This document shows positions 3,163 through 33,074 of a stretch of 64,000 nucleotides of DNA, one piece after another; position 1 is the stretch's first letter, and each line of letters begins with the position of its first letter. The notes under the pieces are model-generated. The model saw only the letters and a program-made list of their open reading frames with translations. It made no database searches and was not told where the DNA came from. Where the stretch lies: NCBI GenBank assembly GCA_049510745.1, contig JBEKYR010000005.1, positions 96,001 to 160,000 of the forward strand. The letters are read 5' to 3'. Origin of the DNA: Verrucomicrobiota bacterium (GTDB lineage Bacteria; Verrucomicrobiota; Verrucomicrobiia; Limisphaerales; Palsa-1400). The position numbers and the translations under genes are program-made.

Positions 3163-3984
3163 TTGCATGTGAACACGAAAAGGCTCAGACGCCGGAGGCC
3201 GATTCGGTCTTCGGCCGCAAGAGCATTCACGCTGGTCGAACTGCTGGTGGTGATGGCCATCATCTCGATCTTGGCGGCGCTCCTCTTGCCGGCGCTGGCC
3301 AAGGCCAAAGCCCAGGGATACTCCACCACCTGCAAAAACCACCTGCACCAAATGGGCCTCGCGCTGGAAATGTATGTCCACGAAAACCGACACGAATATC
3401 CTTACCTGGTTTCCAGTACGGCGATATGGTTCGACAGCCTTTCGCCTTACTACCCAGTCAAATGGACCGACCGAGCGTACCATTGCCCGGGATACAAAGG
3501 AGCCCTCTCGCTCTTCGCGGGGAGGCTGCCGCACGACCCGCTTGGCAGCTATGCTTACAACGCCTGGGGCGTTGGGAGCTGTGACTCCCTGTCTCCATCC
3601 TATCTGCATGGTCTTGTGAGTCTCGGCCTTGCTGGCAGGGGGCGAAAAGCGCCTCCCATTTCCGAGTCCCAGGTAAAAGCGCCGAGCGAGATGCTTGCCA
3701 TTGGCGAATCCAGGCACAGAGGCGAACGGGAGGTGTCCAATGACTCCTGCGTCTTCATTATGTTTTGCGGCAACATTTGGGGAAGGCATGTCCCGGAAAA
3801 TTATTACGGCAACCCCCCGCTCCCGGAGCGGCACGGAAAGAACTACAATCAGCTCTTCTGCGATGGACACGTTGCGTCAATGGATCCCCGCATTTTGTTC
3901 AATCCCACCAATACAGCCGCGCTGTGGAACTACGACCACCAGCCGCATCCGGAACTATGGACCGGTCTTGACGTTCAGCCCTGA
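3163..3984 (+). CDS. Prepilin-type N-terminal cleavage/methylation protein with H-X9-DG C-terminal motif
   Basis: [29 protein letters not shown]...C.NHLHQMG; C-terminal [14 protein letters not shown]. Confidence 0.92.
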
Positions 3985-3993
3985 CGCGGGCGG

Positions 3994-5328: not shown

Positions 5329-5415
5329 GGTGGCACCGTTATTGTCACATATCTGTAATAAAAGGCAAGTCTTTGTTTGACACCTCTGCGGGCCGGTTTT
5401 GGGCCAATAAGACGA

Positions 5416-5445
5416 AGGCCGGGAGACTTCTCGCTCTCCCGGCCT
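5416..5445 (-). terminator. Hairpin downstream of the hsp20 pair
   Basis: AGGCCGGGAGA...TCTCCCGGCCT inverted repeat ~25 nt after the stop. Confidence 0.55.
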
Positions 5446-5469
5446 GTTGTCAAATGAAACCGCCCTTGT

Positions 5470-5850
5470 TTAGCTCACCTTGATTCTGCGGGGCTTGACC
5501 TGCTCGGTCTTGGGCAGGGTGAGGGTCAGGATGCCCTGCTCGATCTTGGCGGCGATTTTCGCCGTGTCGATGGTCGGGTCCAATTCAAAGACCCGGCGGT
5601 AATCGGCGTTTTCCGATTCGCGGTAGAGAAGGCTTGCGCCAAACTCGGCCTGCCTTCGGCCAACAATTGTTAACTCGTTGTTGTCCAAGCTGATATCCAG
5701 GCCTTCCTTGTTCACTCCCGGCAATTCCGCTTCCAGGACGTAGCCGTCCTGGTTCTCGACGATGTTGACTTTCGGCGTGAGAAACTCACGCTCGGTGTCC
5801 GCCGGTTGCGGGCAAACGGGTTTTTCCTGCTGTTGAGCAACTGCGTTCAT
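5470..5850 (-). CDS. Hsp20/alpha-crystallin small heat-shock protein
   Basis: PKVNIVE...AELPGVNKEGLDI...YRRVFEL...AKIEQGILTLTLPK. Confidence 0.95.
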   Translation of the reverse strand: MNAVAQQQEKPVCPQPADTEREFLTPKVNIVENQDGYVLEAELPGVNKEGLDISLDNNELTIVGRRQAEFGASLLYRESENADYRRVFELDPTIDTAKIAAKIEQGILTLTLPKTEQVKPRRIKVS

Positions 5851-5901
5851 AAGTTCCTTTCGTTTCCCGGGCAAGCTGCGCTCGCCCGGCAGTGGGGGTT
5901 G

Positions 5902-6390
5902 TTATTTGACCGTAATGGGGATTTGTTTCGGCTTCGCTTCCTCCGCTTTGGGCAGAGTGACCGTCAGGACACCGTCGGTGTAGGTGGCCTTGATTTTTTC
6001 CGCATCGACCCTGCAAGGCAGGCTGATGGTGCGATGAAAACGGCCCAGCCAGCGTTCCGAGCGGTAGGTCTCCGCCGTCTCGTACTTCTCCTCCTGTTTC
6101 CGTTCGCCGGAGAGGGTCAGATAGCCGTCGTGCAGCGAGATTTCGATGTCTTCCTTTTTCATGCCCGGCACTTCCGCCCTGACGACCAGGCTGTCTTTGT
6201 CCTCGTACAAATCCACCGCCGGAAACCAGCCTTCGAGCAATTGTGTGCTCTGCTCGGAATCCTGGGGCGATCCCAAGAACCGTCCAAGGGTCAGGTTGAA
6301 CAGATTATCCACTTCGTCCCGCAAGGTCGCGATGCGACGAACCGGGGCCACGCTCGATAAGTTAGGCTTTTGCCATCTTGTTAACGTCAT
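5902..6390 (-). CDS. Hsp20/alpha-crystallin small heat-shock protein
   Basis: PAVDLYED...AEVPGMKKEDI...GRFHRTISLP...ATYTDGVLTVTLPK. Confidence 0.95.
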   Translation of the reverse strand: MTLTRWQKPNLSSVAPVRRIATLRDEVDNLFNLTLGRFLGSPQDSEQSTQLLEGWFPAVDLYEDKDSLVVRAEVPGMKKEDIEISLHDGYLTLSGERKQEEKYETAETYRSERWLGRFHRTISLPCRVDAEKIKATYTDGVLTVTLPKAEEAKPKQIPITVK

Positions 6391-6457
6391 AGGTCTTCCT
6401 TTCTCTATCTCAAAATGTTGTTTGTTAAGACTGTTTCAGTTCTTCGATGTTCTGAAT

Positions 6458-6473
6458 AGCGTTTCCTGTGCCA
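6458..6473 (-). promoter_or_regulatory. Probable sigma54 promoter for the hsp20 pair
   Basis: Minus strand TGGCACAGGAAACGCT (GG-N10-GC spacing intact), with an AT-rich upstream tract. Confidence 0.55.
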
Positions 6474-6607
6474 AAACATTCAAAAGTCATAAGATGCTAC
6501 TGCACAATAATATACGACTTACAATATTATAAACCCAGTTTCATAAAGAGACAAAGTGACTCATATTGAGAGTTGATTGAAGTGTCATTATGTCCCACAA
6601 TGACCGC

Positions 6608-6636
6608 AAAAACGCCGCCTTCCGAGGGCGGCGAAG
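6608..6636 (-). terminator. Intrinsic terminator after fba
   Basis: Minus strand CGCCGCCC-TCGG-AAGGCGGCG followed by T5. Confidence 0.7.
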
Positions 6637-6648
6637 CTTCACTCAGTA

Positions 6649-7614
6649 TTAATCAAAGGCGTGCCCCGCGCAGCAGAGGACATCCCGAATCTTATGGCGG
6701 ACAAGCTCTTTGACGCCGGTTCGGGCCGGGCCGAGGTACTTGCGGGGGTCGAACTCTTTGGGGTTTTCGGCGAAACATTTGCGAATGGCGGCTGTCATCG
6801 CCAGGCGCAGGTCAGTGTCAATGTTGACTTTGGTGCAGCCGACCCGGCGGGCGATTTCGATGTCGGCTTCCGGCACGCCTGCGGTGTCTTCGCCCAATTT
6901 GCCGCCGTATTTATTGATCTCCTGGACCAGGTCCTTGGGGACGCTGGAAGCGCCGTGCAAAACCAGCGGATAATCGCCCAGGCCGGCATCCATCAGCGCC
7001 TTTTTGATCGCGCGCAGGCGGTCCAAATCCAGCCGTTGTTCTCCCTTGAACTTGTAGGCGCCATGCGAGTTGCCGATGGCGACGGCCAGGGAATCAACGC
7101 CCGTCTGGCGGACAAACGCCACGGCTTCCTCCGGGTGCGTATAGACGCCCCCTTTTGAATAGCCGCCGCCCTCTTCGCCGTCGTCGTGTTGCGCGCCGAC
7201 GAGCATGCCCAATTCGCCTTCCACCACGCAGTTATGCTTGTGGGCGTAATCGACGACGCGCCTGCAGATTTCGGCGTTTTTCTCAAATGGCTCGTGGCTG
7301 CCGTCGATCATCACGCTAGTAAAGCCCTCGTCGATGCATTCCTTGCAGAGATCGAACGAATCGCCATGATCCAAGTGGACGGCAATGGGGATGTTGGAGG
7401 TGCTGACGGCGGCCTCGATGAGTTTCTTGAGATAAACGGGGCTGGCATATTGGCGGGCGCCTTTGGAGATTTGGAGCATGACAGGGGCCTTTTCCTCCTC
7501 GCAAGCCTCGACGATGGCCTGGAGCAGCTCCATGTTATTGACGTTAAAGGCCCCAAGGGCGTATTTGCCTTTGAGCGCTTTGGCGAACAGATCCTTAGTA
7601 TGTGTCAGTGGCAT
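6649..7614 (-). CDS. fba: Class II fructose-bisphosphate aldolase
   Basis: GAFNVNNME, VHLDHG, SVMIDGS, VEGELG, AIGNSHGAYK, VLHGASS, KVNIDTD, FDPRKYL. Confidence 0.97.
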   Translation of the reverse strand: MPLTHTKDLFAKALKGKYALGAFNVNNMELLQAIVEACEEEKAPVMLQISKGARQYASPVYLKKLIEAAVSTSNIPIAVHLDHGDSFDLCKECIDEGFTSVMIDGSHEPFEKNAEICRRVVDYAHKHNCVVEGELGMLVGAQHDDGEEGGGYSKGGVYTHPEEAVAFVRQTGVDSLAVAIGNSHGAYKFKGEQRLDLDRLRAIKKALMDAGLGDYPLVLHGASSVPKDLVQEINKYGGKLGEDTAGVPEADIEIARRVGCTKVNIDTDLRLAMTAAIRKCFAENPKEFDPRKYLGPARTGVKELVRHKIRDVLCCAGHAFD

Positions 7615-7861
7615 AATCTTTGATCTTTATGCGGGCAACGTGCGGGTTTCCACGTCTCCGGGACCCAGATACTAGGAAGCGCAACGGGAAAGGGGAAGGA
7701 AAAACTACGGCCGGATAAACCGCCCTGCGCGCGGGAGCTGAATTCCAGGCCGGGGCAGGTGGCCGGACCGCCCTGTTTGAGGCTCCAGTGACATCGACGG
7801 ACTTGGGCGGGTTAAAAACCGCTTTACAATTGCGCCGCGCGCGGCATGTTTGGGCGTTTTT

Positions 7862-8002
7862 ATGACGGATACCGACTTGAATTTGTGGGGGCTTATTGCC
7901 GTGCCGGTGGGTTTGGCCATTTGCTTTGGCGTCCCCCTTCTGGTCTGGCTGCGCGATGAAATCCGCGCCGGGGCCGAGGAAAAGAAAAACGCCCGTCACT
8001 GA
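7862..8002 (+). CDS. Small single-TM membrane protein (46 aa), below the ORF-track cutoff
   Basis: MTDTDLNLWGLIAVPVGLAICFGVPLLVWLRDEIRAGAEEKKNARH*: hydrophobic helix plus charged tail, fills the gap between fba and ubiE. Confidence 0.6.
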   Translation: MTDTDLNLWGLIAVPVGLAICFGVPLLVWLRDEIRAGAEEKKNARH

Positions 8003-8017
8003 GCCGCTGAAGCACCT

Positions 8018-8746
8018 TCAGGTTTTTCGCGCGAAATGGATGCTCATCGCGCCGCCAAGCAGGTTGCGTACCCGGATGTCCCGGCAACCCAAGGCCGCCA
8101 TTTTTTCCGCCACGCCGCGCTGCGCGGGATAGTCTTGCAGTGATTCATATATGTAAGCGTGCGTGGCGGAGTCACGGCAAAAAATCCTTCCAAACAGCGG
8201 AACGGCCCATCGCAGCCAGCTAAAATAAAGCCGCCGCCAGAGCCAGCCTTCAGGCTTGCCGAAATCCAGCGCCAGGAGCCTTCCGCCGGGCCGGGCCACG
8301 CGCGCCATCTCTGCCAGGCCGCGTTCCCAACTTTCCAGATTCCTCAGTCCGTAGCCGATGGTGACAATGTCGAAAGAAGCGTCGCCGAAGGGGAGGCGCA
8401 TGGCGTCGCCGCTCATAAACCGCAACGGAGGGGCGGACGGCGCGGCGGGCGGGTTTTTGGCCCGTTTCTCCGCCACCGCCAGCATCGCGGGGCTGAAATC
8501 CAGGCCGACAACTTCCGCGCCGGCGGCGCGCAAGGCGAACGCGATGTCGCCCGTTCCACAGCAGAGGTCCAGCGCTTTTTCGCCCGGTTGCACGGCGGCC
8601 ATTTCGACCAGGAGCTTTTTCCAGCGGCGATGCAGCCAGAAGCTTTGCAGGTCGTTGATCAGGTCGTAACGCGGCGCGATGGCGTCGAAGAGGTCTCCGA
8701 CGCGGGCGGCCCTTTGTTCTCCCGGTTGGTAATACTTGTTGCTCAC
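8018..8746 (-). CDS. ubiE: UbiE/MenG quinone biosynthesis C-methyltransferase
   Basis: FDAIAPRYDLINDLQSF.LHRRWK, LDLCCGTGD, GDAMRLPF, YGLRN, YIYESL. Confidence 0.92.
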   Translation of the reverse strand: MSNKYYQPGEQRAARVGDLFDAIAPRYDLINDLQSFWLHRRWKKLLVEMAAVQPGEKALDLCCGTGDIAFALRAAGAEVVGLDFSPAMLAVAEKRAKNPPAAPSAPPLRFMSGDAMRLPFGDASFDIVTIGYGLRNLESWERGLAEMARVARPGGRLLALDFGKPEGWLWRRLYFSWLRWAVPLFGRIFCRDSATHAYIYESLQDYPAQRGVAEKMAALGCRDIRVRNLLGGAMSIHFARKT

Positions 8747-8772
8747 GCCTTCCGGGCCGATAGTCTCATGTC

Positions 8773-11031
8773 ATGGCGTCTCCGATTCAAGCCGGGCCTC
8801 GAAGTGAATTGCGCATCGCGGGAATGAACTGCGCCAACTGCGTCCGTCACGTCACGGATGCCTTGCAGGCCGTGGCGGGCGTGGCGAGCGCCGTTGTCTC
8901 GTTGCAGGAAGCGCGGGCGCGGGTCCGCTGGCAATCCGGCGCGACCCCGGACGTTTCCGCTCTTGCCGCGGCGGTGCGCGCGGCGGGTTATGAGGCAGAA
9001 CCGCTTTCGGCGGAAAACCAGCCGAAACGGGCCGCGCCCTTGGATGGCTGGCGTTTGAACGTGGCCGTCGGCCTTCTCTGCACCGCGCCGCTAATGGCGG
9101 GCGAATGGGTCTTTGGGCTGGGAATGAGGACTTGGTTCCATTGGCTGGCGTTTGCGCTGGCGCTTCCCGTGCAGGTTTTTTGCGGCGCGCGATTTTACAG
9201 GGGCGCCTGGCAACAACTCAAATCGGGCGGGTCAAATATGGACACGCTGGTGGCGCTGGGATCGACGGCCGCCTTCGGCTACAGCGTGTGGGCGCTCTTT
9301 TCCGGCGCGGGCGGACATCTCTATTTCATGGAAGCGGCCGCCATCATCACGTTGATCAGCGTGGGCCACTGGCTGGAGGCGCGCGCGACCAGCCATGCGG
9401 AAAAATCCCTGCGCGCCTTGTTCCAATTGGCTCCGCCTACAGCCCGCCGCCGCAACGTCGATGGCACCGAAACGCCCGTGCCCGCCGCCGAGCTTCAGCC
9501 TGGCGACAAGGTCGTTTTGCGGCCGGGCGACCGGGTCCCAACGGACGGCCAGTTGCTCGAAGGCCAGTGCAGCATGGATGAAGCGATGTTGACCGGCGAA
9601 TCGATGCCGGTGGAGAAGGCGGCGGGCGGACGCGTTTATGGCGGGACAGTGAACCTGAACGGGCAGGTTGTGATGGAGGTGACGGCGGTCGGCGACGCCA
9701 CGGCCCTGGCCCAGATCGTCGCCGCCGTCGAGCGCGCGCAGAACAGCCGGGCGGATATTCAACGTCTGGCAGACCGGGTCAGCAATGTCTTTGTGCCCAT
9801 CGTGGTGGCGATCGCCATCGGGGCCGCCCTTTGGTGGGGCTTGGCGCCCGGCCAGGCCCATCGGTTCAGCGCGTTGCTGGGCCGCTATCTGTGGCCTCCG
9901 CACATGCCATCGACGCCCCTGGCCGCGGCGATTCTCAGCGCGGTAGCGGTGTTGATTGTGGCCTGTCCGTGCGCGATGGGTTTGGCCACGCCGGTGGCGA
10001 TCATGGCGGGCGCCAACGTGGCCGCCCGGCGCGGCATTCTAATTCGAGACGGCATCGCATTGGAAAAGGCGGGCGGCATCACGGTGCTGCTGGCTGACAA
10101 AACCGGCACATTGACCTGGGGCAAACCCACTGTCGTGGCCACCGAGGGCAACGACTTGCCACTGGCCGCGTCATTGGCGGCGGGTTCCAAACATCCCCTG
10201 AGCCAGGCGGTGGCGAAACTGGCCACGGAAAGGACTTCGTTCCGGGACTGGCGGGAAATTCGCGGGTCGGGGGTGGAGGCGGTCTTGGAAGGCGCGGTCG
10301 TGGCGCGTCTGGGTTCACTGGCGTGGTTGAAGAGTTGCGGCATCGACACGCCGGACCGAAATGGATTCGCGGAAAAATGGAGCGCCGATGGCGCCACGAT
10401 TCTTGGCCTGGCGGCGGGGTCGAACTTATCAACCCTCATCGCGTTGCGGGACACCGTCAAACCGGCCGCCGCCGAAGTGGTGCGCGAGTTGACGCAAAGC
10501 GGTTTGAAAGTGTTTATGGTCACGGGTGATAATCCGCGCACGGCCCATGCCATCGCCCGCCAGGCGGGCATCGCGGCGGAAAATGTTTTCGCGCAAATCC
10601 GGCCCGAGCGCAAAGCGGAGTTGGTCAGCCAATTGCAGGCCAAAGGCGAGCGCGTGGCCTTTGTCGGCGACGGCATCAACGACGCGCCGGCGCTGGAACA
10701 GGCCGATTTGGGCATCGCCGTCAGCGAAGCCAGCGATGTCGCCGGAGCGGCGGCGGACATCATTTTGCTGAAGACGGAGATAGAGGCGATACCGGAGGCG
10801 CTGGCGTTGGCGCGGGCCACGTTGCGGACCATCCGGCAGAATTTGTTTTGGGCCTTTTTTTACAACGCCGCCGCCGTGCCCCTGGCGGCGCTGGGCTTCT
10901 TGAGTCCGATCCTTTGCGCGGCGGCGATGGGCCTTTCGGATTTGGTGGTGATTGGCAACGCCCTGCGGCTGGGCAAAACTGCCCCGAGAAAACCGGCCGC
11001 GCCTCCGTCTCTTTCCTGTCCGAATCCGTAG
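8773..11031 (+). CDS. copA: Cu(I)-type heavy-metal P1B-ATPase
   Basis: HMA GMNCANC, LTGES, CPC, DKTGTLT, HP, GDGINDAP, YN in the C-terminal TM. Confidence 0.9.
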   Translation: MASPIQAGPRSELRIAGMNCANCVRHVTDALQAVAGVASAVVSLQEARARVRWQSGATPDVSALAAAVRAAGYEAEPLSAENQPKRAAPLDGWRLNVAVGLLCTAPLMAGEWVFGLGMRTWFHWLAFALALPVQVFCGARFYRGAWQQLKSGGSNMDTLVALGSTAAFGYSVWALFSGAGGHLYFMEAAAIITLISVGHWLEARATSHAEKSLRALFQLAPPTARRRNVDGTETPVPAAELQPGDKVVLRPGDRVPTDGQLLEGQCSMDEAMLTGESMPVEKAAGGRVYGGTVNLNGQVVMEVTAVGDATALAQIVAAVERAQNSRADIQRLADRVSNVFVPIVVAIAIGAALWWGLAPGQAHRFSALLGRYLWPPHMPSTPLAAAILSAVAVLIVACPCAMGLATPVAIMAGANVAARRGILIRDGIALEKAGGITVLLADKTGTLTWGKPTVVATEGNDLPLAASLAAGSKHPLSQAVAKLATERTSFRDWREIRGSGVEAVLEGAVVARLGSLAWLKSCGIDTPDRNGFAEKWSADGATILGLAAGSNLSTLIALRDTVKPAAAEVVRELTQSGLKVFMVTGDNPRTAHAIARQAGIAAENVFAQIRPERKAELVSQLQAKGERVAFVGDGINDAPALEQADLGIAVSEASDVAGAAADIILLKTEIEAIPEALALARATLRTIRQNLFWAFFYNAAAVPLAALGFLSPILCAAAMGLSDLVVIGNALRLGKTAPRKPAAPPSLSCPNP

Positions 11032-13012: not shown

Positions 13013-13240
13013 TCAAGACTTGCGGCAGCGCGAGGCCAACGCCTTCACGACAGGAACAAGTCGGCAGTCTTCCAACGGGCGGTAATGCAGTGGCCTGCGG
13101 CGGGCGCGTTTGAGCCAAGCCACATCCTCGGCGTCCTCCACGCGCTCCAAGAGTTCTTCATAATTCTTGATGGGGATGATGACCGAGACGGGTTTGCCGT
13201 TGCGCGTCACGATTTCAGGTTCTGGCATTGTCGCCTTCAT
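13013..13240 (-). CDS. Phd/YefM-like antitoxin (orphan, possibly with run-on C-terminus)
   Basis: EIVTRNGKPVSVIIPIKNYEELLERVEDAED is a typical Phd-like signature. Confidence 0.75.
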   Translation of the reverse strand: MKATMPEPEIVTRNGKPVSVIIPIKNYEELLERVEDAEDVAWLKRARRRPLHYRPLEDCRLVPVVKALASRCRKS

Positions 13241-13264
13241 AGTCGTGGATTACCGTCTCCACGT

Positions 13265-13453
13265 TCAGGCACGCGGAGTGTTCTCCTCCTCATCCAGCGC
13301 GCGGAAAGATGCCGCCGCCAGAGCCGCGAAATCGTCATCCGTCAAATCATCAGACATGGGAGCACGTTCGACGATGGCGCGTCGAAGCTGTTGACGCTCC
13401 TTTTCCGAAAGCTGCTCGAACTCGCCAAGAATTTGAGTGACTGCTTGTGTCAT
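13265..13453 (-). CDS. Small acidic hypothetical protein, antitoxin-like (62 aa)
   Basis: MTQAVTQILGEFEQLSEKERQQL...LTDDDFAALAAASFRALDEEE; size, acidity and position next to a Phd gene. Confidence 0.55.
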   Translation of the reverse strand: MTQAVTQILGEFEQLSEKERQQLRRAIVERAPMSDDLTDDDFAALAAASFRALDEEENTPRA

Positions 13454-13542
13454 GTCCTGAACATACGCCGACGGAAAGGACTGAGCAAGCGCCGGGTATT
13501 AAGCGATTGACAAGCAGTACGATTCGTGATAAAGGAGCGATC

Positions 13543-14172
13543 ATGACTAAGGAAGGGATTATCATTGCCGCTTTCACGACAATGGCCATGTTCTCTTTAC
13601 AACGGTTGGAAGCTCAGGGGACATTAACGATGGCGACTGATCCGACATTCGGGCCAAACTCACTAATTGTTGACACGGCAACAGGTCTGAACTGGCTAAA
13701 CCTAAAATACACAGATGGCTTGAGTTATGACCAGGTCATTGGGGAGATGGCGCCGGGAGAGCTCTTCGCGGGATTTACGTATGCTAGCTCTGCCCAGGTG
13801 ACTACACTTTTTGCGGATGGTACGCCAGGGAACGCAAATTATTCGCCCACGAGTCCTGCAATTGCGACATTCATTGATTTGGTTGGAAGCACCGGAGAGC
13901 AGAACGGATACCCTTACTCCATGGGTGAAGTGCTAAACGGACCACCTGGTATTATTGGTGGCGAGCTTATCATACCGACGTGGGGCCTTTTTGTTGCAGG
14001 TTACAACGGCGTCTTTTCTTATGGTGTGCAGGGGTCCAGGCAAGGAGAGTGGTACGGGGGCGGTTTCGGAAGCTGGCTTGTGGAAGCTGTACCGGAGCCC
14101 AAGACATGGTGCTTGTGTTTGCTTGCCGCACCATTTGTAATCAGCGCGGTTCGGAAAAGAAGCAGAATATGA
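13543..14172 (+). CDS. PEP-CTERM sorting-domain secreted protein
   Basis: Signal peptide; C-terminal VPEP + hydrophobic stretch + RKRSR; lower GC than host genes. Confidence 0.85.
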   Translation: MTKEGIIIAAFTTMAMFSLQRLEAQGTLTMATDPTFGPNSLIVDTATGLNWLNLKYTDGLSYDQVIGEMAPGELFAGFTYASSAQVTTLFADGTPGNANYSPTSPAIATFIDLVGSTGEQNGYPYSMGEVLNGPPGIIGGELIIPTWGLFVAGYNGVFSYGVQGSRQGEWYGGGFGSWLVEAVPEPKTWCLCLLAAPFVISAVRKRSRI

Positions 14173-14385: not shown

Positions 14386-14424
14386 TAATGCGGGGAATGG
14401 CGGGAGTGGCGGGGCTCGAACCCG
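14386..14424. repeat. att direct repeat (duplicated 3' end of tRNA-Asp), 39 bp
   Basis: TAATGCGGGGAATGGCGGGAGTGGCGGGGCTCGAACCCG is identical to 19307-19345. Confidence 0.97.
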
Positions 14425-14607
14425 CTACGAATCATTGCAAATCAAGGACTTAGGTGGGCTGCCATCACAAGGAGCCTCACAAATCTCTGGCGTGTTGGGG
14501 CAGGACCTGTCACGCGTAGTCACTGCATGGGCTGATCTTCCTCCGCCTCTCAAGGCTGCAATCCTCGCCATTATCGAGGCCGCCGGGAAATAGGAAAGCG
14601 GCTACCT

Positions 14608-15546
14608 GTGGACACGCAAGCCAGTGGGGGCACGGAAGGGCCGGGGGCGGAGCGGCGCGAAGCGCCGCCCGCACCCGGCCTTCCTTGTCTAAATAGTAAC
14701 AATTCAGACAACGCGGAAGCGAGTCCGTGGAATCTCCTGACGGGTTCGCATCGCAAGGTGGCCTTCTGTCTGCAAGGAGAAATTCTCGCTTTGGTTGAGG
14801 ACTTCGGTATTGAGCATCTTGGATTTTTAACCCTCACTTTTGCTGATCATGTCGTTGACATCAGGGAAGCGTCTCGGCGGTTTAACAATCTCAACCGGCG
14901 CGTATTGAAGGCCCGTTACAAGCGCCTGGTGGCGGTGCCAGAGCGGACGAAGATTCAGAGGCTGCATTTCCACTGCCTGTGCGTGTTAGACGTTGATATC
15001 CGCACTGGCTGCGATTTTGAGGCTTTCAAGAAAGGGGATTACCGGTCGGCATCGGCGGTTCTTAAGTCCGAGTGGAAGTTTTGGCGCGAGACTGCGCCCA
15101 AGTATGGCTTCGGTCGGACTGAGTTGCTGCCGGTTAAGTCAACCGCCGAGGGCATCTCGAAATACGTTGGGAAATACATCGCCAAGCACATCGACTGCCG
15201 GGTCGAAAAGGACAAAGGCGCGAGGTTGGTTCGCTACATCGGTTATCGCCCTGGGGAGCGGTCGTTCCACCCACACATGATGTTCAATTCGGAGCATGCC
15301 TGGCTGTGGCGGCAGAAGGTAGAAAAGTTCACCCGCCAAAATCGCATTTTTGACATGGAGCATTTCACGAAGATTTGCGGGCCTCGTTGGTGCTACTTTT
15401 TTCAAGACGCGATTCTTCACACGGATTTGCCTCCTGGCACGGTGTTTCCGTCGTTGGCTCTGGGGTTGGACGAGTCGGAGCGCAAGAGCGCCAGGGAGTG
15501 TTTGCTTTTGAAAGTTCGTCTTTGCAAAGACATCGACAAGCTGTGA
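14608..15546 (+). CDS. HUH-family rolling-circle replication initiator
   Basis: Motif I FLTLTF, motif II LHFHCL, motif III KYVGKYIAK in the canonical order; start codon (GTG) uncertain. Confidence 0.85.
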   Translation: MDTQASGGTEGPGAERREAPPAPGLPCLNSNNSDNAEASPWNLLTGSHRKVAFCLQGEILALVEDFGIEHLGFLTLTFADHVVDIREASRRFNNLNRRVLKARYKRLVAVPERTKIQRLHFHCLCVLDVDIRTGCDFEAFKKGDYRSASAVLKSEWKFWRETAPKYGFGRTELLPVKSTAEGISKYVGKYIAKHIDCRVEKDKGARLVRYIGYRPGERSFHPHMMFNSEHAWLWRQKVEKFTRQNRIFDMEHFTKICGPRWCYFFQDAILHTDLPPGTVFPSLALGLDESERKSARECLLLKVRLCKDIDKL

Positions 15547-15748
15547 GTCCGCACTGTCAATTACACCGTGTAACCTCGGAACTGCGCGGAGCGTAACCAA
15601 CACAACCAAACAGGACCACCCTTGCCACCCTGGGCAATAGGGAGAACCTGGCATTGGAAAAAACCATCCTGGGCAAGGGGCATCTCAATGCGATTTGTCT
15701 TGCTAGGGCCATCAAAAAGCGCAATGGTGGCCGAAATTTAAAACACGC

Positions 15749-16594
15749 ATGACAATCGTTGTTGGACTAATAGGCAAGGAATCAATCGTTTTAGCGAGTG
15801 ACAGCCAGTCAACCTATGGAGTGGCAAAGTTACTGAACGCAAGAAAAATAGGCGTCGTCGCATTTGAAAATGGAACGGCACTTGTTGCACAAGCTGGCGC
15901 GGCGTATCCGGCGTCTCGCGCAGTGCAACTTTTTGAACGGAAGGCAAAAAGCCTTCGCGTTACTGATTCCGAATCGTTTATTAAGGCCGCTCGTGACTCT
16001 GTATTAGAAGTGAAACATTGCCTAATTGAAGGACAAGGGGGAGCAGCGTTTTCAGAAGATAGACGGGAGCAATTTTTTAGATGTGACTACTACTTTAAAT
16101 TGATGGTCGCTTACTATCTTAACGACCAGCCTTTCATTTTCACGATTGATAGTTATGACTGTCTGCCGGTCCATCTGAAATCGGATTATGTGGCAATGGG
16201 ATGCGGTGACACTTTAGCGTATTACCTTTTAAGCGAGATTGTGGAACTAGGGATGCCATTTACGAACTGCATGGCGCGTGCAATCTACGTTGTGGAAAAG
16301 GTCAAACAAAACGTTGAGGGATGCGGGGGATCGACATGCGTTGGAGTTGTTCATAACGTCCCTGATTCGGATGATGATTATACCGCGAAAGTCCGCCGTT
16401 CAAAAGGATTGACATTACCGTATAGCAGTGCTCGTGTTCTTGATCAAAATAGAATCAGCGATATTGCAAGGAGACTTACAGACGTTGATTTTAAATGCAG
16501 GAAAGATAGAAACAAGCAAATTATAGCGATGATTCAAGGTGTGGAGGCTGATTATCAGAACGAATGGGACGAATCGCCGGAGGAAGTACAATGA
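15749..16594 (+). CDS. Proteasome-beta/Ntn-hydrolase-like protein without propeptide
   Basis: M-T1IVVGL..IVLASD17SQST..RK32I..AQAG..YVAMGCG..GCGG follows the Thr1/Asp17/Lys33/Gly47/GSG/SGG pattern; strongly AT-rich. Confidence 0.75.
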   Translation: MTIVVGLIGKESIVLASDSQSTYGVAKLLNARKIGVVAFENGTALVAQAGAAYPASRAVQLFERKAKSLRVTDSESFIKAARDSVLEVKHCLIEGQGGAAFSEDRREQFFRCDYYFKLMVAYYLNDQPFIFTIDSYDCLPVHLKSDYVAMGCGDTLAYYLLSEIVELGMPFTNCMARAIYVVEKVKQNVEGCGGSTCVGVVHNVPDSDDDYTAKVRRSKGLTLPYSSARVLDQNRISDIARRLTDVDFKCRKDRNKQIIAMIQGVEADYQNEWDESPEEVQ

Positions 16595-16713
16595 GTAAGC
16601 CAGGTATCCAAGTCGGTTTTTACTGGCGATAACCAGGATTTGTTTCTTGAAGACACTGTTCCTGTTTTGAGGACTGCGTGCGGCTTAGTGCAGTATCACA
16701 TGTGGCAGCAAAT

Positions 16714-17154
16714 TTACTTGAGGTTTTGCCACCGGACCAATATTCCATCGCTGAAATAGAGGAAAATGTCCGGTTCGGCAGTTTCGAGAGTGACAGGGTC
16801 GGGATCTAAATATGACCATAAATCAAATGAACCGCCAATTCCTTGACTTGTTTCAATATGCCACGGGCGGCCCATGACCACGCGGACTTGCTCTTCGTCC
16901 ATACCGATTGAAATCCGTCCGTTCTTGAAGTTGTCCAGCAATCTGGGGTCGGCATTTGGATGTGCTTCCATGTATGCTCGCGCTCTCTCGGAAATTGCAG
17001 ACGGGAGACGTTGGTCGAGTTCGTCGAGCGTAAATTGCGCTGCGGATTTATAGTGCTCTGTGGCCGTGTCGGCAGGGGGTTGTCCATATTGAGGGGGGAT
17101 GGGAGACCCACATCCCGCGATTGCGACAAGAATGACTGACAGAACGATTCTCAT
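16714..17154 (-). CDS. Predicted lipoprotein with SmpA/BamE-like small domain
   Basis: Lipobox IAGC; IGMDEEQVRVVMGRP...WSY...LYFSDGILVRWQ. Confidence 0.65.
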   Translation of the reverse strand: MRIVLSVILVAIAGCGSPIPPQYGQPPADTATEHYKSAAQFTLDELDQRLPSAISERARAYMEAHPNADPRLLDNFKNGRISIGMDEEQVRVVMGRPWHIETSQGIGGSFDLWSYLDPDPVTLETAEPDIFLYFSDGILVRWQNLK

Positions 17155-17478
17155 TGTTTGGATAGTATCACGCCCGATAGCTGTCCGTCAATAATGTGAG
17201 AATGCGCCTGGTGGTGACGGCATTGGCCGCAGTGTTGCGGTGGCAGAAAGGGCGCAATCCTGGGGACAAGGACGACACGACCAGGCACTTGTCGGGGCGG
17301 AGCGTTCGCGTGTTGGCATTTGGCTTGGCCTTTGTGTTCGCAGCAAGCCGGATGCCAACACGGGAACGCGCAGCGGGGAAATGCTCATGGTTTCTAATGT
17401 GATAATGATTGCAATTAGAATTACTAAAAACGTTTTTATTTGATTGCTATGTTCGTTTTGTTCGTTTAGTTTGATGCC

Positions 17479-17877
17479 ATGAAAAGAAAACGAACAGGCG
17501 CGAAAGTGATAGCCGGGAAGGCAACGCAAAAGGCCCCCGTGCGAGCGGAACAAAAATCAGAGAACCAATGGCCGCCCGGGCATCTCACAGAATCCTCGGA
17601 TGGGGTGCTGAGAATCCGTCCGTTTCCAGAGAGCCTTCTGCACGAAGCCGAACGAGAGCCTGATCATGTGGACTTGGCGGAATACTGGCGGGTGATTTTT
17701 AAGCTGCGCGAAAAGGGCTTCACGTTTCGTGATATTGCACTGTGGCTTTCGGAGCGCAACGTTGAGGCGGACCACAACGCCGTTTATCGGGTGTACTCCA
17801 ATCATATGACCGCCGAGCAGACTGCAATAGAATCGGACCTGGAAGAACGGGAAAAGCAAATGATCGAGGAGTTGTGA
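17479..17877 (+). CDS. Hypothetical protein with probable HTH
   Basis: LREKGFTFRDIALWLSERNVEADHNAVYR resembles an HTH; first gene of the run leading to int. Confidence 0.6.
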   Translation: MKRKRTGAKVIAGKATQKAPVRAEQKSENQWPPGHLTESSDGVLRIRPFPESLLHEAEREPDHVDLAEYWRVIFKLREKGFTFRDIALWLSERNVEADHNAVYRVYSNHMTAEQTAIESDLEEREKQMIEEL

Positions 17878-17878
17878 T

Positions 17879-18100
17879 ATGTCTGACGTTGTCGAAAGGG
17901 CGAGCGAGGGCAATGCGGAATCGAAACTGGTGCGGCTGAAAGGGGCGGCGGCTCGGCTTGGTGTCAGTGTGCGGACATTGTACCGCATCATTGCGGAAGG
18001 GGGCTTGCCCTTGGTGCATATTCGAGGGTGTTCGTGTTTGAAAGAAGGCGACTTGAGCGCTTACGTGGAAAAAAGCAAACGAAGGAAAATTTATGATTAA
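17879..18100 (+). CDS. Excisionase/AlpA-like HTH protein
   Basis: LVRLKGAAARLGVSVRTLYRII.EG.LP.V.IRG; 73 aa, overlaps the integrase start. Confidence 0.88.
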   Translation: MSDVVERASEGNAESKLVRLKGAAARLGVSVRTLYRIIAEGGLPLVHIRGCSCLKEGDLSAYVEKSKRRKIYD

Positions 18101-19376
18101 CAGCATTTACAAACCCAAGGGGTCGCGGATATGGCGCTGGAGATTCCGGCAGGTCCCTGCCGATGGCAAAATTGAAGATGTATCGCTTGGGACATCTGAG
18201 AAACAGGTGGCGGAAAAACGGCAGGGTGAGCGGCGGCGAGAAAAGGAGCTTGAAAGAGGGGGGTTCATTCCTCCAAAGGCTATACGTGATGCGTCACACC
18301 GCAAGCTGTCGGACCATTTGCAAGACTTCCTGGGCGATATGCGCCGGCGGGGGAAGTCGGAAAAGTATCTGGCAAACCTTGAATTCCGTGTTGGCAGACT
18401 GATTTCGGATTGCGCTTGGAACACAGCAAGCGACGTTTCGGCTGATTCATTCCAAGCCTGGTTGCGTAGGCGACAGGAATTGAAGGACAAGACGGCGAAT
18501 GATTATTTAGAAGCTGCGCGGTGTTTTTTTAACTGGCTGGTGAAACTCGGTCGGGCGGGGTCTAATCCTCTGCTGTCGGTGGAAAAGGCAAAAACGAAAG
18601 GCGGCAAAGCACAGGGGCGCCGGGCGTTTAGTGATGACGAAATGGTGCGTTTGCTGGCTGTTGCTGGCGAGCGCAAGGCGGTTTACCTGATGGCGGTCCA
18701 TACGGGCTTGCGGAGAGGGGAATTGGCGGCGCTCAAGTGGGGAGACTTGCATCTGGATGCGGTGACACCGTTTGTCAACGTCCGGGCATCGACAACTAAG
18801 AACGGCAAGGCTGCGGATATGCGATTGCTTCCTGAATTGGTGGCAGCACTGGCTGAACTTAAAACCAACGGGACAAATGGCGATGACCTTGTTTTCAAGC
18901 GGATTCCCCGGATTGAGAGGTTTTACAGGGACTTGAAAAAAGCCGGGATTGCGCTCAAGGACGCATTTGGACGCAAGGCCGTCTTTCATTCCCTGCGGCA
19001 TACATTCGGGACTAATCTGGCGCGGGGTGGAGTGGCAAGCCGGGTTGCAATGGCTCTGATGCGGCACAGTGACCGAAGATTGACGGATCAGATTTACACT
19101 GATGAAAACCTGCTCGGCACCTGGGCGGCGTTCGACAGTCTGCCCAATTATGGGGAGCGAGCCTCACAAATAGCCTCACAGATTTTAGTCGCAACGGGTC
19201 AAAACGTGTCATTGCCTGTCACAACGAGTGCCGGGCCGGAAGTGGCAAAAACCCTTGTAAACATTGGCGATTGTCACGTTTTGGCACTGCCTGGCACAAC
19301 GGGTCATAATGCGGGGAATGGCGGGAGTGGCGGGGCTCGAACCCGTAACCTCTGCCGTGACAGGGCAGCGCTCTAA
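18093..19376 (+). CDS. Tyrosine recombinase/integrase
   Basis: TGLRRGEL (R), TKNGK (K), FHSLRH (HxxR), MRHSD (H), QIYTD (Y); the ORF reads through att into the tRNA antisense. Confidence 0.96.
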   Translation: MINSIYKPKGSRIWRWRFRQVPADGKIEDVSLGTSEKQVAEKRQGERRREKELERGGFIPPKAIRDASHRKLSDHLQDFLGDMRRRGKSEKYLANLEFRVGRLISDCAWNTASDVSADSFQAWLRRRQELKDKTANDYLEAARCFFNWLVKLGRAGSNPLLSVEKAKTKGGKAQGRRAFSDDEMVRLLAVAGERKAVYLMAVHTGLRRGELAALKWGDLHLDAVTPFVNVRASTTKNGKAADMRLLPELVAALAELKTNGTNGDDLVFKRIPRIERFYRDLKKAGIALKDAFGRKAVFHSLRHTFGTNLARGGVASRVAMALMRHSDRRLTDQIYTDENLLGTWAAFDSLPNYGERASQIASQILVATGQNVSLPVTTSAGPEVAKTLVNIGDCHVLALPGTTGHNAGNGGSGGARTRNLCRDRAAL

Positions 19377-19395
19377 CCAATTGAGCTACACCCCC
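19319..19395 (-). tRNA. tRNA-Asp (GTC)
   Basis: GGGGGTGTAGCTCAATTGGTTAGAGCGCTGCCCTGTCACGGCAGAGGTTACGGGTTCGAGCCCCGCCACTCCCGCCA folds as a 77-nt cloverleaf with anticodon GTC and encoded CCA. Confidence 0.97.
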
Positions 19396-20954: not shown

Positions 20955-21423
20955 GGCGTCAAGAAGTCTGGCGCCCTTGCCGCGCTTCGCGCCCCTCCCC
21001 CCACTCGGAAGTTACGCAAAGGTTCGATGGGCGGCAAGGGCGCCGCAATGTCTCCAACATGTTCTGAGTTCATGTCTCGCCTGCCTGTCACGCCGCGCTC
21101 CTGGCGTCGGTGGGTTAAAATCCAGATTCCCGCTGCCGATCCGAAAGCATTCCCACCCGAGCGTGACAACAATTCATCGGCAGGTTCCGGCATTTTGTTA
21201 AATTTCGGGTCAGGGAACAACTGAGGCAGCGCCTTAAAAAGAGCGGCAAAAATTGCCCACTGCATGGACAGGAAGAGATTTCGATTTGAAATCAACTTGA
21301 TGAATTTGTCGAGCGTTGTAAACTTGCTTCGTGCGCAAAACAAAAGAAACCGCGTATCAACTCACCCGCCATCATTTAGTCCACATTCTTCGCGAGGAAG
21401 CGCAGTCGAACAGCGTCCACTCG

Positions 21424-22302
21424 ATGACGATTGGCGATTACACCGATGCGATCATTTGCGGCGATGCAGAGTCCACGGTGCGCGCCCTGCCATCCGAATC
21501 CGTCAACGCGATTATCACGAGTCCGCCTTATTACCAACAGCGGGATTACGGCGCGGGGTTGCAAATTGGAAACGAATCTTCGCCGGAAGCTTACGCGCAA
21601 AAGTTGGCGGGCGTTTTCCGCGAATGTTTCCGAGTGCTGGCGAAGGATGGCACGTTGTGGTTGAACCTCGGAGACAAATACAAGGAGGGGCGGTTGTTGG
21701 GAATGCCGTGGCGCGTCGTGTTCGCCTTGGAAAGCCTCGGCTGGATTCTCAGGTCTGACATCATTTGGCATAAAACCAACGCCATGCCCGCTTCGGTGAA
21801 GAACCGCCCGACGACGGATCACGAATACGTCTTTATGTTTTCCAGGTCGCCGGATTATTTCTACAACGCCGACGCCATTCGTGAACCGCACGTCACGTTC
21901 ACGGAAAAAAGCAGGATGAGGGGCGGGCGCGGGCATTTCGGAAAACGGGGAGGAACGCCGGAGCAAGGCAAGAACGGCGGAAATCCCAATCTCCACAATG
22001 GGCGCTGGGACCAGGCGTTTCATCCGTTGGGCAGAAACAAAAGAACCGTTTGGCAGATTCCTCTGTCAAAATTCCCGGAGGCTCACTTCGCGGTGTTCCC
22101 GGAAAAGTTGGTTGAAACCTGTGTTATGGCTGCGACGAAGCCAAACGGTTTGGTCCTCGACCCGTTCGCTGGCAGCGGCACTGTTGCAATTGTAGCCCAG
22201 CAGTTGGGGCGTCACTTCGTCGGGATTGATTGCAGCGAGAAATACTGCGCTCTGGCCAAAAAGCGTCTCGAAAAAAGCCAACTGGCATTTGGCCTGGCCT
22301 GA
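21424..22302 (+). CDS. Beta-class amino-DNA methyltransferase (probably N4-cytosine)
   Basis: TSPPY precedes VLDPFAGSGT; IIWHK.N.MP, HEYVFMF, HFAVFPEKL; alternative GTG start at 21331. Confidence 0.93.
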   Translation: MTIGDYTDAIICGDAESTVRALPSESVNAIITSPPYYQQRDYGAGLQIGNESSPEAYAQKLAGVFRECFRVLAKDGTLWLNLGDKYKEGRLLGMPWRVVFALESLGWILRSDIIWHKTNAMPASVKNRPTTDHEYVFMFSRSPDYFYNADAIREPHVTFTEKSRMRGGRGHFGKRGGTPEQGKNGGNPNLHNGRWDQAFHPLGRNKRTVWQIPLSKFPEAHFAVFPEKLVETCVMAATKPNGLVLDPFAGSGTVAIVAQQLGRHFVGIDCSEKYCALAKKRLEKSQLAFGLA

Positions 22303-22303
22303 A

Positions 22304-23182
22304 TCAGGCAAACCGCTTGAAAAATGGAATCAACTTTTCCACTTCATTTTCGAGCATCGGTCCGATGGCCTCGGTCTGGTTTGGATTGGCGCGAAGATAA
22401 ATCCAATGCTCGCACCGGAGGGATTTCAGATCTCCGCCCCAAGACTCCGCAATGATGACAGGCACGCATTCGTATCCGTTCTCATGCGCCACTGAAATTG
22501 CCTTGAAAATATCTCGTGTGAACAGATTGGCATGGCCGCCGCCCATCGTTTCGCGCGTTTTGACTGGCACAAGAATCGTTCGCTTCTTGCCGATGATCTG
22601 CACATCGAATGTTTCTTCTTTGATTCGCTTTTCGCCATCTCCGATTTCAAGCCGAACGGAGCGTCTCTCAAAAACTGTTCGGAAAGCCCCGCGAACAAGC
22701 TCCTCAAATCTCGTTCCTTTGAGCGCCCGGCGACTTCCCTCAAGCCTTGCCAGCATCACTTCGGACAACGCCGGCCACGACCAACTTTCGGCCTGCGGAA
22801 ACAATGGTCCGACGAATTTGCGCAACTGATTCAAGAGGTTTGCGCGCTTTTCATCCAGGGATTCGCCTTGCACTGAAGTCAGGAGCGGTCGCAGCCGTTG
22901 AGCAGGCGCGTCCCGTAGAATCCACGCGAGGAAATACCATTTTGCCGTCGCGTCTTTGTAAGGTCTGGCCAAACCATCAAGCAATTGAACACCGCTCCGC
23001 CTCGCCAAATAATTTCCAATGACCTTCGTCGCTTTCGCATCCGACGGCTCGTTTATGAAAACGTAAATGTTTTGATAGCCGTGCTGCTTTAAATACACGC
23101 AGAAGTCCTCATAGTATTTTTGATTCTGGCGGACGATGGCCACCAAATCTTGCAGCCGCAGATTCTCGATTATGAAGCCCAT
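22304..23182 (-). CDS. Probable type II restriction endonuclease
   Basis: Convergent with the MTase (1-bp gap), lower GC, G..FE...FDVQI...VPVKTRE PD-(D/E)xK-like core. Confidence 0.65.
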   Translation of the reverse strand: MGFIIENLRLQDLVAIVRQNQKYYEDFCVYLKQHGYQNIYVFINEPSDAKATKVIGNYLARRSGVQLLDGLARPYKDATAKWYFLAWILRDAPAQRLRPLLTSVQGESLDEKRANLLNQLRKFVGPLFPQAESWSWPALSEVMLARLEGSRRALKGTRFEELVRGAFRTVFERRSVRLEIGDGEKRIKEETFDVQIIGKKRTILVPVKTRETMGGGHANLFTRDIFKAISVAHENGYECVPVIIAESWGGDLKSLRCEHWIYLRANPNQTEAIGPMLENEVEKLIPFFKRFA

Positions 23183-23190
23183 GAAATGTT

Positions 23191-24981
23191 TCAATGATAT
23201 TCCTGCACCGTCTTGACGCCGTAGCCGCTTTTTTTGAGGGCGGCGATGCCCAGGGCGGCGGCGCGGGCGCCGCCGAGCGTGGTCATAATCGGCGTGCCCG
23301 TATAGACGGCGGTGGTGCGGATTTTCACTTCGTCGGCCCGCGGCGTCTGGCCGGCGGGGGTGTTGATGACCAGGTGAATTTCACGGTTCTTCAGCAGGTC
23401 CAGCGTGTTGGGGCGGCCTTCGGCCAGTTTGAAAACGCGCGAAACCTTCAGGCCGGCTTCCTCCAGGACTTTGGCCGTGCCCACCGTTGAAATCAGCTCG
23501 AAGCCCAGGTCGGCGAATTGCCGGGCAATGGCGGCGACTTGTTTCTTGTGCGCGTCGCTCACGCTGATGAAGACGCGCCCGCTCAAGGGCAGCGGCGCCC
23601 CGGCGGCCATCTGCGATTTGGCGTAGGCGATGCCCAAATCGGCGTCCAACCCCATCACCTCGCCCGTCGAACGCATTTCCGGCGAGAGCAAAATGTCCTG
23701 GCCCTGAAAGCGGTTGAAGGGAAAGACCGATTCCTTGACGGCCCAGTACCGGGTCCAAATCTCCCTGGTGAAACCCAGTTCGGCCAGTTTCTTTCCCGTC
23801 ATGACTTTGGCGGCCAGCTTGGCCAGGGGCACGCCGATCGCTTTGCTGACGAAGGGCACCGTGCGCGAGGCCCGCGGATTGACTTCCAACACATACACCG
23901 TTTCTCCCTTGACGGCGTATTGCACGTTCATCAAGCCGATGACGCGCAATTCCCGCGCCATGGCGTGCGTGTACTGGCGCATCGTTTCAATGACTTTGGC
24001 CGAAAGGGTGTGCGGCGGCAACACCATGGCCGCGTCGCCCGAATGCACCCCGGCAAACTCGATGTGCTCCATAAATCCCCCAATCACAATCGTGCCTTCC
24101 GCCGCGTCCGCGAAATGTCCCACGTCGGCAATGCAATCCACGTCCACCTCGGTGGCGTCTTCCAGGAATTTGTCCACCAGCACGGGCCGCTCGGGAGAAG
24201 CCTCCACCGCGACGCGCATGTAATGGTTCAACTCCGCGTCGGAATAGACGATCTGCATGGCCCGTCCGCCCAGCACAAAGGACGGACGCACCAAAACCGG
24301 GTAGCCCAGGCCGCGCGCCGCCTCCAGCGCCTCCGCTTCGTTGGTGGCCAGGCCGTTGGGCGGTTGCGGAATGGCCAGTTTATTGAGCATGGCGGCAAAG
24401 AGTTTGCGGTCTTCGGCGATCTCGATGCTTTGCGGAGAGGTGCCGATGATGTTGACGCCGTTCTTTTGCAGGCCCAGCGCCAGATTCAGCGGCGTCTGCC
24501 CGCCAAACTGCGCGATCGCCCCCCGGCATTTTTCCCGCTCGTAAATGTGCAGGACATCCTCCAGCGTCAGCGGCTCGAAAAAGAGCTTGTCGCTGGTGTC
24601 GTAATCGGTCGAAACGGTTTCGGGATTGGAATTGACCATCAACGTTTCAAAACCGTCCTCCTTCAGCGCAAAGGCGGCGTGGACACAGCAATAATCAAAT
24701 TCAATCCCCTGTCCGATGCGGTTGGGGCCGCCGCCCAGGATCATGATTTTCCGCTTGCCGCCCGGCCGGATTTCGTCGTCCCCGCAATCGTAGGTGGAAT
24801 AATAGTAGGGTGTGTAAGCCTCGAATTCCGCCGCGCAGGTATCGACCAGCCTGTAACTGGGGACCAGGCCCAGTTCCTTGCGCAAGGCGCGGACGTCCTC
24901 CTCGGATTTTCCGGTCAAACAGCCAATTTGACGATCGGAGAATCCGAGGGATTTCGCCTTGGCGAGCAATTCACGATTCAT
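23191..24981 (-). CDS. carB: Carbamoyl-phosphate synthase large subunit, C-terminal half only
   Basis: [34 protein letters not shown], second ATP-grasp, MGS domain; 596 aa. Confidence 0.92.
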
Positions 24982-29287: not shown

Positions 29288-29311
29288 GCAGCCGCCGGGC
29301 GGAGTTGTCAA

Positions 29312-30763: not shown

Positions 30764-30786
30764 AAACGCGCCTTGCCCAAAAAACG

Positions 30787-32460: not shown

Positions 32461-32693
32461 ACAACGTATTAAGTATCGTCCCTTTCGCCCATTTTACACG
32501 TTACAACTTGGCAGAAAAATCCGGGAATTCAAGTCGCGCCCGATTGAAAAATCCGCATGTTCTTCCCACCCGGGCCTTGAAAGCGTTTGTGCCTCGGTAT
32601 TCGGTTTATCTGCGATGGATGGGCAATCGCAAGACTTCCACGATCTTGCGGGCGATCAAATAACGCCGTTCTTCGGTCACGCTGCCCTTGCGG

Positions 32694-33017: not shown

Positions 33018-33074
33018 AGGCTAATCATAGGCTGTTTTCAGGTTGGCGTCGAGAGATTTTTTGGAAATCCGCCC

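Follow-up and report, generated by a model that had tools for sequence, protein, structure and literature searches.

The gene at positions 15749-16594 (forward strand) of the window, by which we mean the whole stretch of 64,000 nucleotides that was analysed, almost certainly encodes a real stand-alone proteasome-like enzyme that is carried as cargo by mobile elements. The best explanation that we can give as a whole, which covers identity, mobility, assembly, the use of two start codons in relatives and a role in defence, is held with somewhat less than even confidence. Anti-phage defence is proposed tentatively as a candidate function, and it is the single likeliest one.

The open reading frame codes for 281 amino acids and begins with M-T-I-V-V, and its assignment as a proteasome-beta-like Ntn hydrolase is based on the ORF, Pfam, an AlphaFold2 model and the alignment of relatives. 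In mature numbering, Thr1, Asp17 and Lys32 are present after Met removal, as a first-pass annotation of this DNA had read them, together with the oxyanion Gly49. The Pfam Proteasome profile (PF00227) matches the protein at E 1.4e-6 and passes its cut-off; the NCBIfam archaeal beta profile stays far below its own (30 bits vs 224), and the HslV profile gives 14.7 bits vs a cut-off of 137. No match to PADLOC models was obtained at E 0.1, and pyridoxal kinase, the sole match in a sequence search of the PDB, was judged to be due to chance. The gene is very AT-rich, as had also been noticed at first: its GC content of 0.447, compared with 0.605 for the window, is the minimum among ATG-started ORFs of at least 200 amino acids.

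Because an in-frame start codon is absent upstream of the gene, where 14 open codons and then a stop are found, the window copy has no propeptide translatable from a standard start, and the earlier reading that a propeptide is missing is true for this copy. The 14 open codons (15707-15748, forward strand), which are devoid of ATG, GTG and TTG, are a remnant of the basic leader of the family and end in P-K-x-K-x-R as in the sister locus L034. An out-of-frame ATG at 15726 starts a uORF of five codons within this remnant, and a promoter scan 5' of the gene gave nothing exceeding chance.

The AlphaFold2 model was built on a 110-sequence alignment, has a pLDDT of 94.9 and shows the four-layer beta-sandwich of the Ntn fold. 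Structurally it is closest to proteasome beta subunits (Z 22.0, rmsd 2.1-2.8 A), followed by Anbu (5loy, 5nyw and 5nyg; Z 20.7, with 213 residues in the longest alignment of any match), HslV (18.6), BPH (16.7) and connectase (12.1). Structure prediction, which the first-pass annotation had named as a check on its reading, therefore gave a proteasome-beta fold. Helices are modelled at 74-95, 103-113, 154-164, 171-188 and 233-275, with a helical insertion at about 96-113. The long charged C-terminal extension described earlier is there, but in the model it is really a folded loop insertion plus the 43-residue helix H5 (233-275). Homodimer prediction with two copies of the window protein scored 0.49, against 0.00 for the best control, on a scale where 20 of 30 solved pairs and 1 of 23 single chains attained the dimer mark; the runs share at least 30% of contacts and have a pLDDT of at least 82. 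The predicted interface places H5 against H5 (235-269) together with H3/H4, giving a predicted H5-mediated, Anbu-like dimer of opposing subunits, although the pass may come from likeness to solved Anbu.

According to the accessible parts of two papers, Anbu is propeptide-free, exposes Thr1 by Met removal and joins opposing subunits through its C-terminal helix (PMC5666114), in an H5-type dimer arrangement (PMC8665760). The window copy resembles it in being propeptide-free, in having Thr1 after Met and in its predicted C-terminal-helix dimer. It is unlike Anbu in its sequence (13% identity), its mobile and patchy occurrence, the extra helical insertion and the near-invariant Cys at the Ser169 site; furthermore, a recurring ATP-grasp/alpha-E/transglutaminase operon is absent from the family loci, with a lone transglutaminase match at L057. 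The fold, the Thr1-Asp17-Lys33 triad (Lys32 here) and the oxyanion Gly are shared with the 20S proteasome beta subunit (PF00227), from which the window protein differs in having no alpha partner, no ATPase and no Gly(-1) propeptide and in not keeping Ser129 and Asp166. HslV and BPH are also single-gene bacterial beta-like proteins with the same triad, but both are without H5 and have the lower Z scores given above, and no HslU adjoins members of the window family. The window protein is neither Anbu nor HslV, and its relatives are mobile cargo, not ordinary chromosomal genes of these two kinds.

In the accessible text of their survey, Fuchs, Alva and Lupas (2021) described 22 orphan proteasome homologues with no genomic context and propeptides in none, and listed PHI for the PVC group, with no AAA+ partner (PMC8665760). 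By comparison with that text, not with PHI sequences, PHI fits the modelled architecture best: both are stand-alone with an intact triad and no AAA+ partner, and both have a long insertion after H1/H2, none between H3/H4 and a long H5 with a predicted coiled coil. The absence of an H3/H4 insertion distinguishes the window protein from PMI-2 to PMI-6. Differences from the orphans as described in the survey are the recurring IS1595 context and the signs of an optional basic leader.

Of 111 full-length relatives, 101 retain the complete Thr-Asp-Lys-Gly set. The Thr1 amine of proteasomes is protonated by Ser129 and Asp166, and the available part of the source reports that a D166A mutant does not undergo autolysis and that activity falls by about 60% in D166N (PMC4792962). 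This second triad of 20S beta subunits is not retained in the window copy, which has Cys151 at the Ser129 site, Val188 at the Asp166 site and Cys191 at the Ser169 site, in a register taken from motif position and a low-probability hhalign alignment. Among the 111 relatives, the Ser129 site is occupied by Cys (42), Ile (34), Val (11) or Ser (9), the Asp166 site by Val (46) or Asp (36), and the Ser169 site by Cys in 110. The GCG and CGG motifs pointed out at first are present (150-152 and 191-193), but GCG is no family motif, since its middle residue, at the Ser129 site, varies; it is the Cys of CGG, at the Ser169 site, that is kept. Because the second triad is not kept, the change from GSG to GCG is no conservative swap, and Val at the Asp166 site with Cys at the Ser129 site means that efficient hydrolysis by the window copy is not assured. 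Remodelling of the second triad around the near-invariant Cys is a new trait of this family, and the residue pattern suggests a slow, narrow or gated enzyme in which the nucleophile is kept and the remainder of the site is rebuilt.

The element carrying the window copy is 4.96 kb long and lies between identical 39-nt direct repeats (14386-14424 and 19307-19345, forward strand) that overlap the 3' end of tRNA-Asp; the left repeat is a copy of this end, and the right one overlaps the integration target, tRNA-Asp(GTC), at 19319-19395 (reverse strand). Rep, of the rolling-circle (HUH) type, has 312 amino acids from a putative start (14608-15546, forward strand; PF23343, E 9e-9; phrog_3419) and contains FLTLT, LHFH and KYVGK, which we take to be the RCR motifs. 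The window gene starts 202 bp after rep, inside the att repeats, and thus occupies the cargo slot beside rep that the first-pass annotation had assigned to it. The second cargo gene (16714-17154, reverse strand) encodes a 146-aa predicted lipoprotein, called from a signal-peptide/Cys pattern in its sequence, with a weak BamE/SmpA-like domain (PF04355, E 0.0075, below cut-off). On the forward strand follow a 132-aa protein with a weak recombinase/HTH-like match (17479-17877; PF07508, E 0.089), a probable element regulator that precedes xis, then an excisionase-like HTH_17 protein (17879-18100; PF12728, E 5e-6; phrog_66) and a 427-aa tyrosine integrase (18093-19376; PF00589, E 3.5e-20). With att repeats, integrase, excisionase and Rep all present, this is a tRNA-targeted integrative element of the RCR-Rep type.

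The reading frame of the integrase extends across the right att site, so that its product would not be the same in the integrated and the circular form; on excision the integrase tail would be recoded from just inside the left repeat (14425-14590), giving 473 amino acids in place of 427. Neither an empty-site nor a circle junction was found in the contigs of four metagenomes, in which the depth of the cargo was not raised, and a 14433-19162 joint found in two metagenome runs probably comes from related elements. The element also contains a dispersed non-coding repeat detected by BLAST (17207-17391, no strand assigned; imperfect hairpin at 17280-17391). Nine BLAST segments of it were counted in the genome, and it is found again in several sister Rep elements; its depth is high in four metagenomes, contigs from peat metagenomes have insertions within it, and it is possibly a REP/MITE-like element. 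Just outside the left att repeat, an earlier insertion at this tRNA may have left its traces in 13013-14172: a low-GC gene for a 209-aa protein whose tail, judged by its sequence, is PEP-CTERM-like and which has no Pfam match, a 62-aa addiction-module-like ORF and the remnant of a Phd/YefM-like antitoxin. At 21331-23194, between housekeeping genes, a DNA methyltransferase-like gene faces a lower-GC 296-aa ORF; by sequence, the two look like a putative type II restriction-modification pair.

Relatives of Rep were found in 17 of the 31 genomes of the host's family, and 19 regions around the best Rep matches were used as the set of sister elements. L130, L135 and L144 are likewise located at tRNA-Asp and have integrases 65-85% identical. 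A tblastn search with the window protein gave no match in any of the 19 regions, and the slot beside rep is therefore exchangeable. When the cargo of 18 sister regions was scanned, a known defence system was found in two and none was recognised in 16. One is AbiD in L137, about 4 kb from rep in a region where the element ends are undefined; the other is a complete TerY-P triad (vWA, PP2C and kinase; 3479-7377) in L146, directly after a related rep. The annotated cargo of the remaining sister regions consists mostly of Sel1, LRR, ankyrin, NHL, PDZ, HEAT or redoxin proteins.

The family profile collected 946 clusters (50% identity), 241 of them at E <=1e-30. Named relatives are from Verrucomicrobiota MAGs; look-alike ESM Atlas clusters reach Acidobacteriota and others and are regarded as leads only. 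By presence counts made at differing thresholds, carriers are 11 of 31 genomes of the host's family, 11 of 401 of its order and 4 of 401 of its class, and a GTDB-wide scan with a 10-sequence alignment gave eight loci. Plasmids and phages gave no tblastn match to the relative P0050. Viral contigs, scanned three times, yielded one contig, and since its copy adjoins an IS1595 transposase, a phage origin was rejected.

The family is mainly passenger cargo of IS1595 transposons. For this survey we used 57 loci with an intact N-terminus, leaving out duplicates (five, then two more), one contig-edge row and one doubtful row. An IS1595 transposase lies within 4 kb in 18 loci and an IS1595-type end within 300 nt upstream in 13 more, the latter compared with 0 of 627 AT-rich 300-nt windows of the host genome; transposase or end is thus present in 31 of 57 loci. 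IS1-family elements are present at two, and many of the remaining 24 loci are on short contigs. Eighteen candidate elements include exact 8-9-bp target duplications in ten of the IS1595 and two of the IS1 type, a 7/8 match in two others and none in four. Enclosure by TIRs with a target duplication was found for the sister L034 and the paralogue L001, and the IS1595-type ends of the family loci presumably belong to the ISNwi1 group. The mobile cargo status first read from the window copy holds for that copy and across the family.

Passenger-carrying ISs are a known class, with transporter IS (tIS) and MICs described for the IS1595 family in the available part of the source (PMC3129680). Relatives of the window protein are found, in the same manner, between TIRs of about 22 bp with 8-bp target duplications, with or without transposase. 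Unlike tIS passengers, the window copy itself has no IS ends, and neither IS1595 TIRs nor a target duplication was found near the gene. We infer that it descends from an IS passenger that was then captured by the Rep element; a possible capture route is seen at L037, where an IS1-borne copy adjoins a distant rep of the same family. A literature search, which reached few subscription papers, found no proteasome-like or HslV-like IS passengers and no proteasome-like protein tied to anti-phage defence.

Among 243 proteins within 2.6 kb of the family loci, only transposases recur, and neither an alpha subunit nor an ATPase of the proteasomal or HslU kind nor an Anbu operon was found; because ORFs were defined by a simple heuristic, small neighbour genes may be missed. 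About ten loci, a count that has no background control, have a defence or toxin-antitoxin-type neighbour: methylase-Mrr (L034, L061), HNH (L003), superinfection immunity (L037), SocA (L061), and further HipA, HEPN-nucleotidyltransferase, PIN, WYL and FRG. Several elements (L001, L041, L088) yielded no further cargo gene of notable size, and their context is therefore of little help in judging function. On a short metagenome contig, L097, a Pfam match to Tad5 (Thoeris inhibitor) lies at 637-1218, about 1.6 kb upstream of the family member. Small Lys/Arg/Pro-rich ORFs of leader-like composition and without a Pfam match were seen near the IS1595 right ends of L001 (6740-6976) and L034 (4689-4958).

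Four copies of the family are present in the host genome, namely the window copy, L001, L002 and L003; the two paralogues found by tblastn are about 34-35% identical to the window protein. L001 lies in a complete IS1595 element with an 8-bp target duplication, L003 is in an IS1595-type cassette with an HNH gene and without transposase, and L002 lies between 50-nt inverted repeats with a Sel1-trypsin lipoprotein. The L002 repeats (6088-9426; G000:C1) belong to a different type; they are accompanied by neither transposase nor target duplication, and an IS1595-type end is nested upstream of the gene. At L001 (6675-6732 and 8935-8992; G000:C24), the right end of the element is directly followed by another left end of IS1595 type, which faces a glycoside hydrolase family 66 gene and represents a tandem or remnant cassette. 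A midpoint-rooted tree of 45 proteins, with a number of long branches, joins the window copy to L034, an IS1595 passenger, as its sister (100/97), places the four paralogues on four branches and shows no clustering of vehicle labels. The low identity (about 34%) and the four branches rule out duplication within the genome, and the four paralogues are separate acquisitions. The family is under strong purifying selection, with dN/dS of 0.09-0.11 in seven pairs and 0.20 for the window copy vs L034; five of 13 pairs were saturated. Truncated copies account for 11 of 60 tabulated copies away from contig ends.

Many relatives in databases have a Lys/Arg/Pro-rich stretch ahead of Val/Met-Thr1. The codon before Thr1 is GTG in 50 and ATG in 10 of 60 loci; GTG accounts for 234 of 932 Val codons inside genes, vs 50 of 50 for Val before Thr1. 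This bias at position -1 indicates a start codon, not a cleavage site, and a classical autocleaved propeptide was ruled out on this ground. Leader statistics were calculated by column permutation over 12 codons upstream in 42 dereplicated loci of 59. The leader frame contains 6 stops vs 19.7 expected (z -4.1; other frames -0.3 and -1.2) and is enriched in Lys+Arg (z +7.4, with +4.1 also in frame 1, as A-runs would give) and Pro (z +5.6), and the coding signal fades past codon 12. In the 7 of 17 sister pairs that were alike enough, a small sample in which one locus was used twice, pN/pS of the leader is 0.44 in frame vs 1.06 and 0.90 out of frame. An in-frame upstream start is ATG in 21 of the 42 loci, GTG or TTG in 8 and absent in 13, including the window copy. 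The leader stretch of one clade equally fits a promoter in the IS end followed by a short A-rich 5' UTR, and the single-sequence fold of a leader-bearing relative had a pLDDT of 35. We consider it somewhat more probable than otherwise that about half of the family makes an optional long form with a blocked Thr1. The leader, which looks coding in many relatives, suggests two starts, and this layout is the second new trait of the family. The first-pass annotation overlooked this upstream start of relatives, as well as IS1595 as the usual vehicle and the three further paralogues.

In the mechanism that we propose, Met removal would expose Thr1, and subunits would pair through the long C-terminal helix into Anbu-like dimers, with no ATPase-fed barrel. 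The helical insertion and the remodelled second triad would make the protein a narrow-specificity or triggered enzyme and no bulk degrader. In about half of the relatives, the upstream start would give a longer form in which the basic leader blocks Thr1, an inactive or inhibitory isoform. The benefit would most likely come from cutting one specific protein and thereby protecting against phages or rival elements. The anti-phage role that had been proposed for this gene finds weak support in the two of 18 sister regions with defence systems and the roughly ten loci with such neighbours; the missing PADLOC match and the 16 sister regions with no recognised system speak against it.

A modulator of the host's UBact-type proteasome, which would join or compete with the alpha/beta rings, had been suggested as the other role, and this we regard as extremely unlikely. 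The operon (29312-32460) contains a UBact-like 56-aa gene, beta, alpha and a PafA/Dop-family gene (ligase), with no ATPase gene among the ORFs listed for 29000-33200; it is indeed about 13 kb away (12.7 kb), and the protein family occurs more often in the host's family, in which many genomes also have the proteasome. The proximity, however, follows from the tRNA-Asp integration site. Host-beta matches occur in 166 of 401 genomes of the order (a count including G674, flagged unpublished), and 6 of the 11 family-carrying genomes have host beta and 5 do not, four of these five being at least 92% complete. Because these five carriers are without beta, modulation of the host proteasome is not the role of the family, which is independent of it. 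In addition, similarity between the window protein and host beta is 17%, and the predicted self-dimer occupies H3/H4, the surface that joins beta rings. It is also very unlikely, though less so, that the protein is a transpeptidase or ligase like connectase and no hydrolase. Connectase is a known non-hydrolytic member of this family of folds in the accessible text of the 2021 survey (PMC8665760), and here too the nucleophile triad is kept and the Ser129/Asp166 pair protonating the Thr1 amine is not. The structure, however, is far nearer to beta and Anbu (Z 22 vs 12), H1/H2 are kept without the connectase insertion between S3 and S4, and Asp is at the 166 site in 36 of 111 relatives.

Two other roles are less remote and nevertheless unlikely. 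The enzyme may serve the element itself, either as an addiction toxin checked by its own leader-bearing isoform or as a protease tuning the transposase or Rep/integrase. In many cases the gene is the passenger nearest to the IS1595 left end, on its inner side, and in some no other sizeable passenger was found; selection is strong and purifying, and the two-start layout would give toxin and inhibitor from one gene. Against this, at least three unrelated vehicles (IS1595, IS1 family and Rep-integrase) and the transposase-less cassettes L003 and L075 carry the gene, so that no fixed element target is evident; the 11 of 60 truncated copies mean that gene loss is tolerated, and the window copy has neither an upstream start nor an antitoxin-like neighbour. 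Slightly less probable still is a general non-defence benefit, such as ATP-independent clearing of damaged proteins or peptide/amide hydrolysis, perhaps redox-gated by Cys. The available text of the survey suggests that orphan homologues act uncapped in such roles (PMC8665760), sister elements mostly have non-defence genes in the cargo slot, and the near-invariant Cys takes the place of Ser169, a residue in contact with the Thr1 amine of proteasomes according to the accessible part of PMC4792962. Such a benefit would lead one to expect chromosomal fixation, yet presence is patchy and copies lie in AT-rich mobile islets; the strong divergence of relatives (22-52% identity to the window protein) around a fixed active site fits conflict genes better.

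A defence protease is the function that we prefer as a candidate. Its most specific form, which we consider improbable as a complete statement, is a transposon-spread single-gene defence/addiction module, in which one frame gives an active enzyme with free Thr1 from the internal GTG/ATG start and, from the upstream start, an inhibitor or sensor form whose Thr1 is blocked by the basic Lys/Arg/Pro leader; the two forms would pair through the C-terminal coiled coil, and the Cys-remodelled site would make activity narrow or gated. If this is true, the one-gene module would be a version of the active/inactive split that proteasomes make with separate alpha and beta genes, and the two-start layout, if true, would provide active and inactive proteasome-like subunits from one gene.

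The family now has a context, as selected cargo of small transposons and integrative elements, where the available text of the 2021 survey gave neither a context nor a hint of function for any orphan. Since carriage is repeated and under strong selection, a simple test with wild type vs T1A and with short vs long start is possible. This family is a testable lead on account of its near-invariant Cys, its two-start signature and the four acquisitions that one genome made separately, and if its function is defence or addiction, the proteasome fold would join the bacterial conflict systems.
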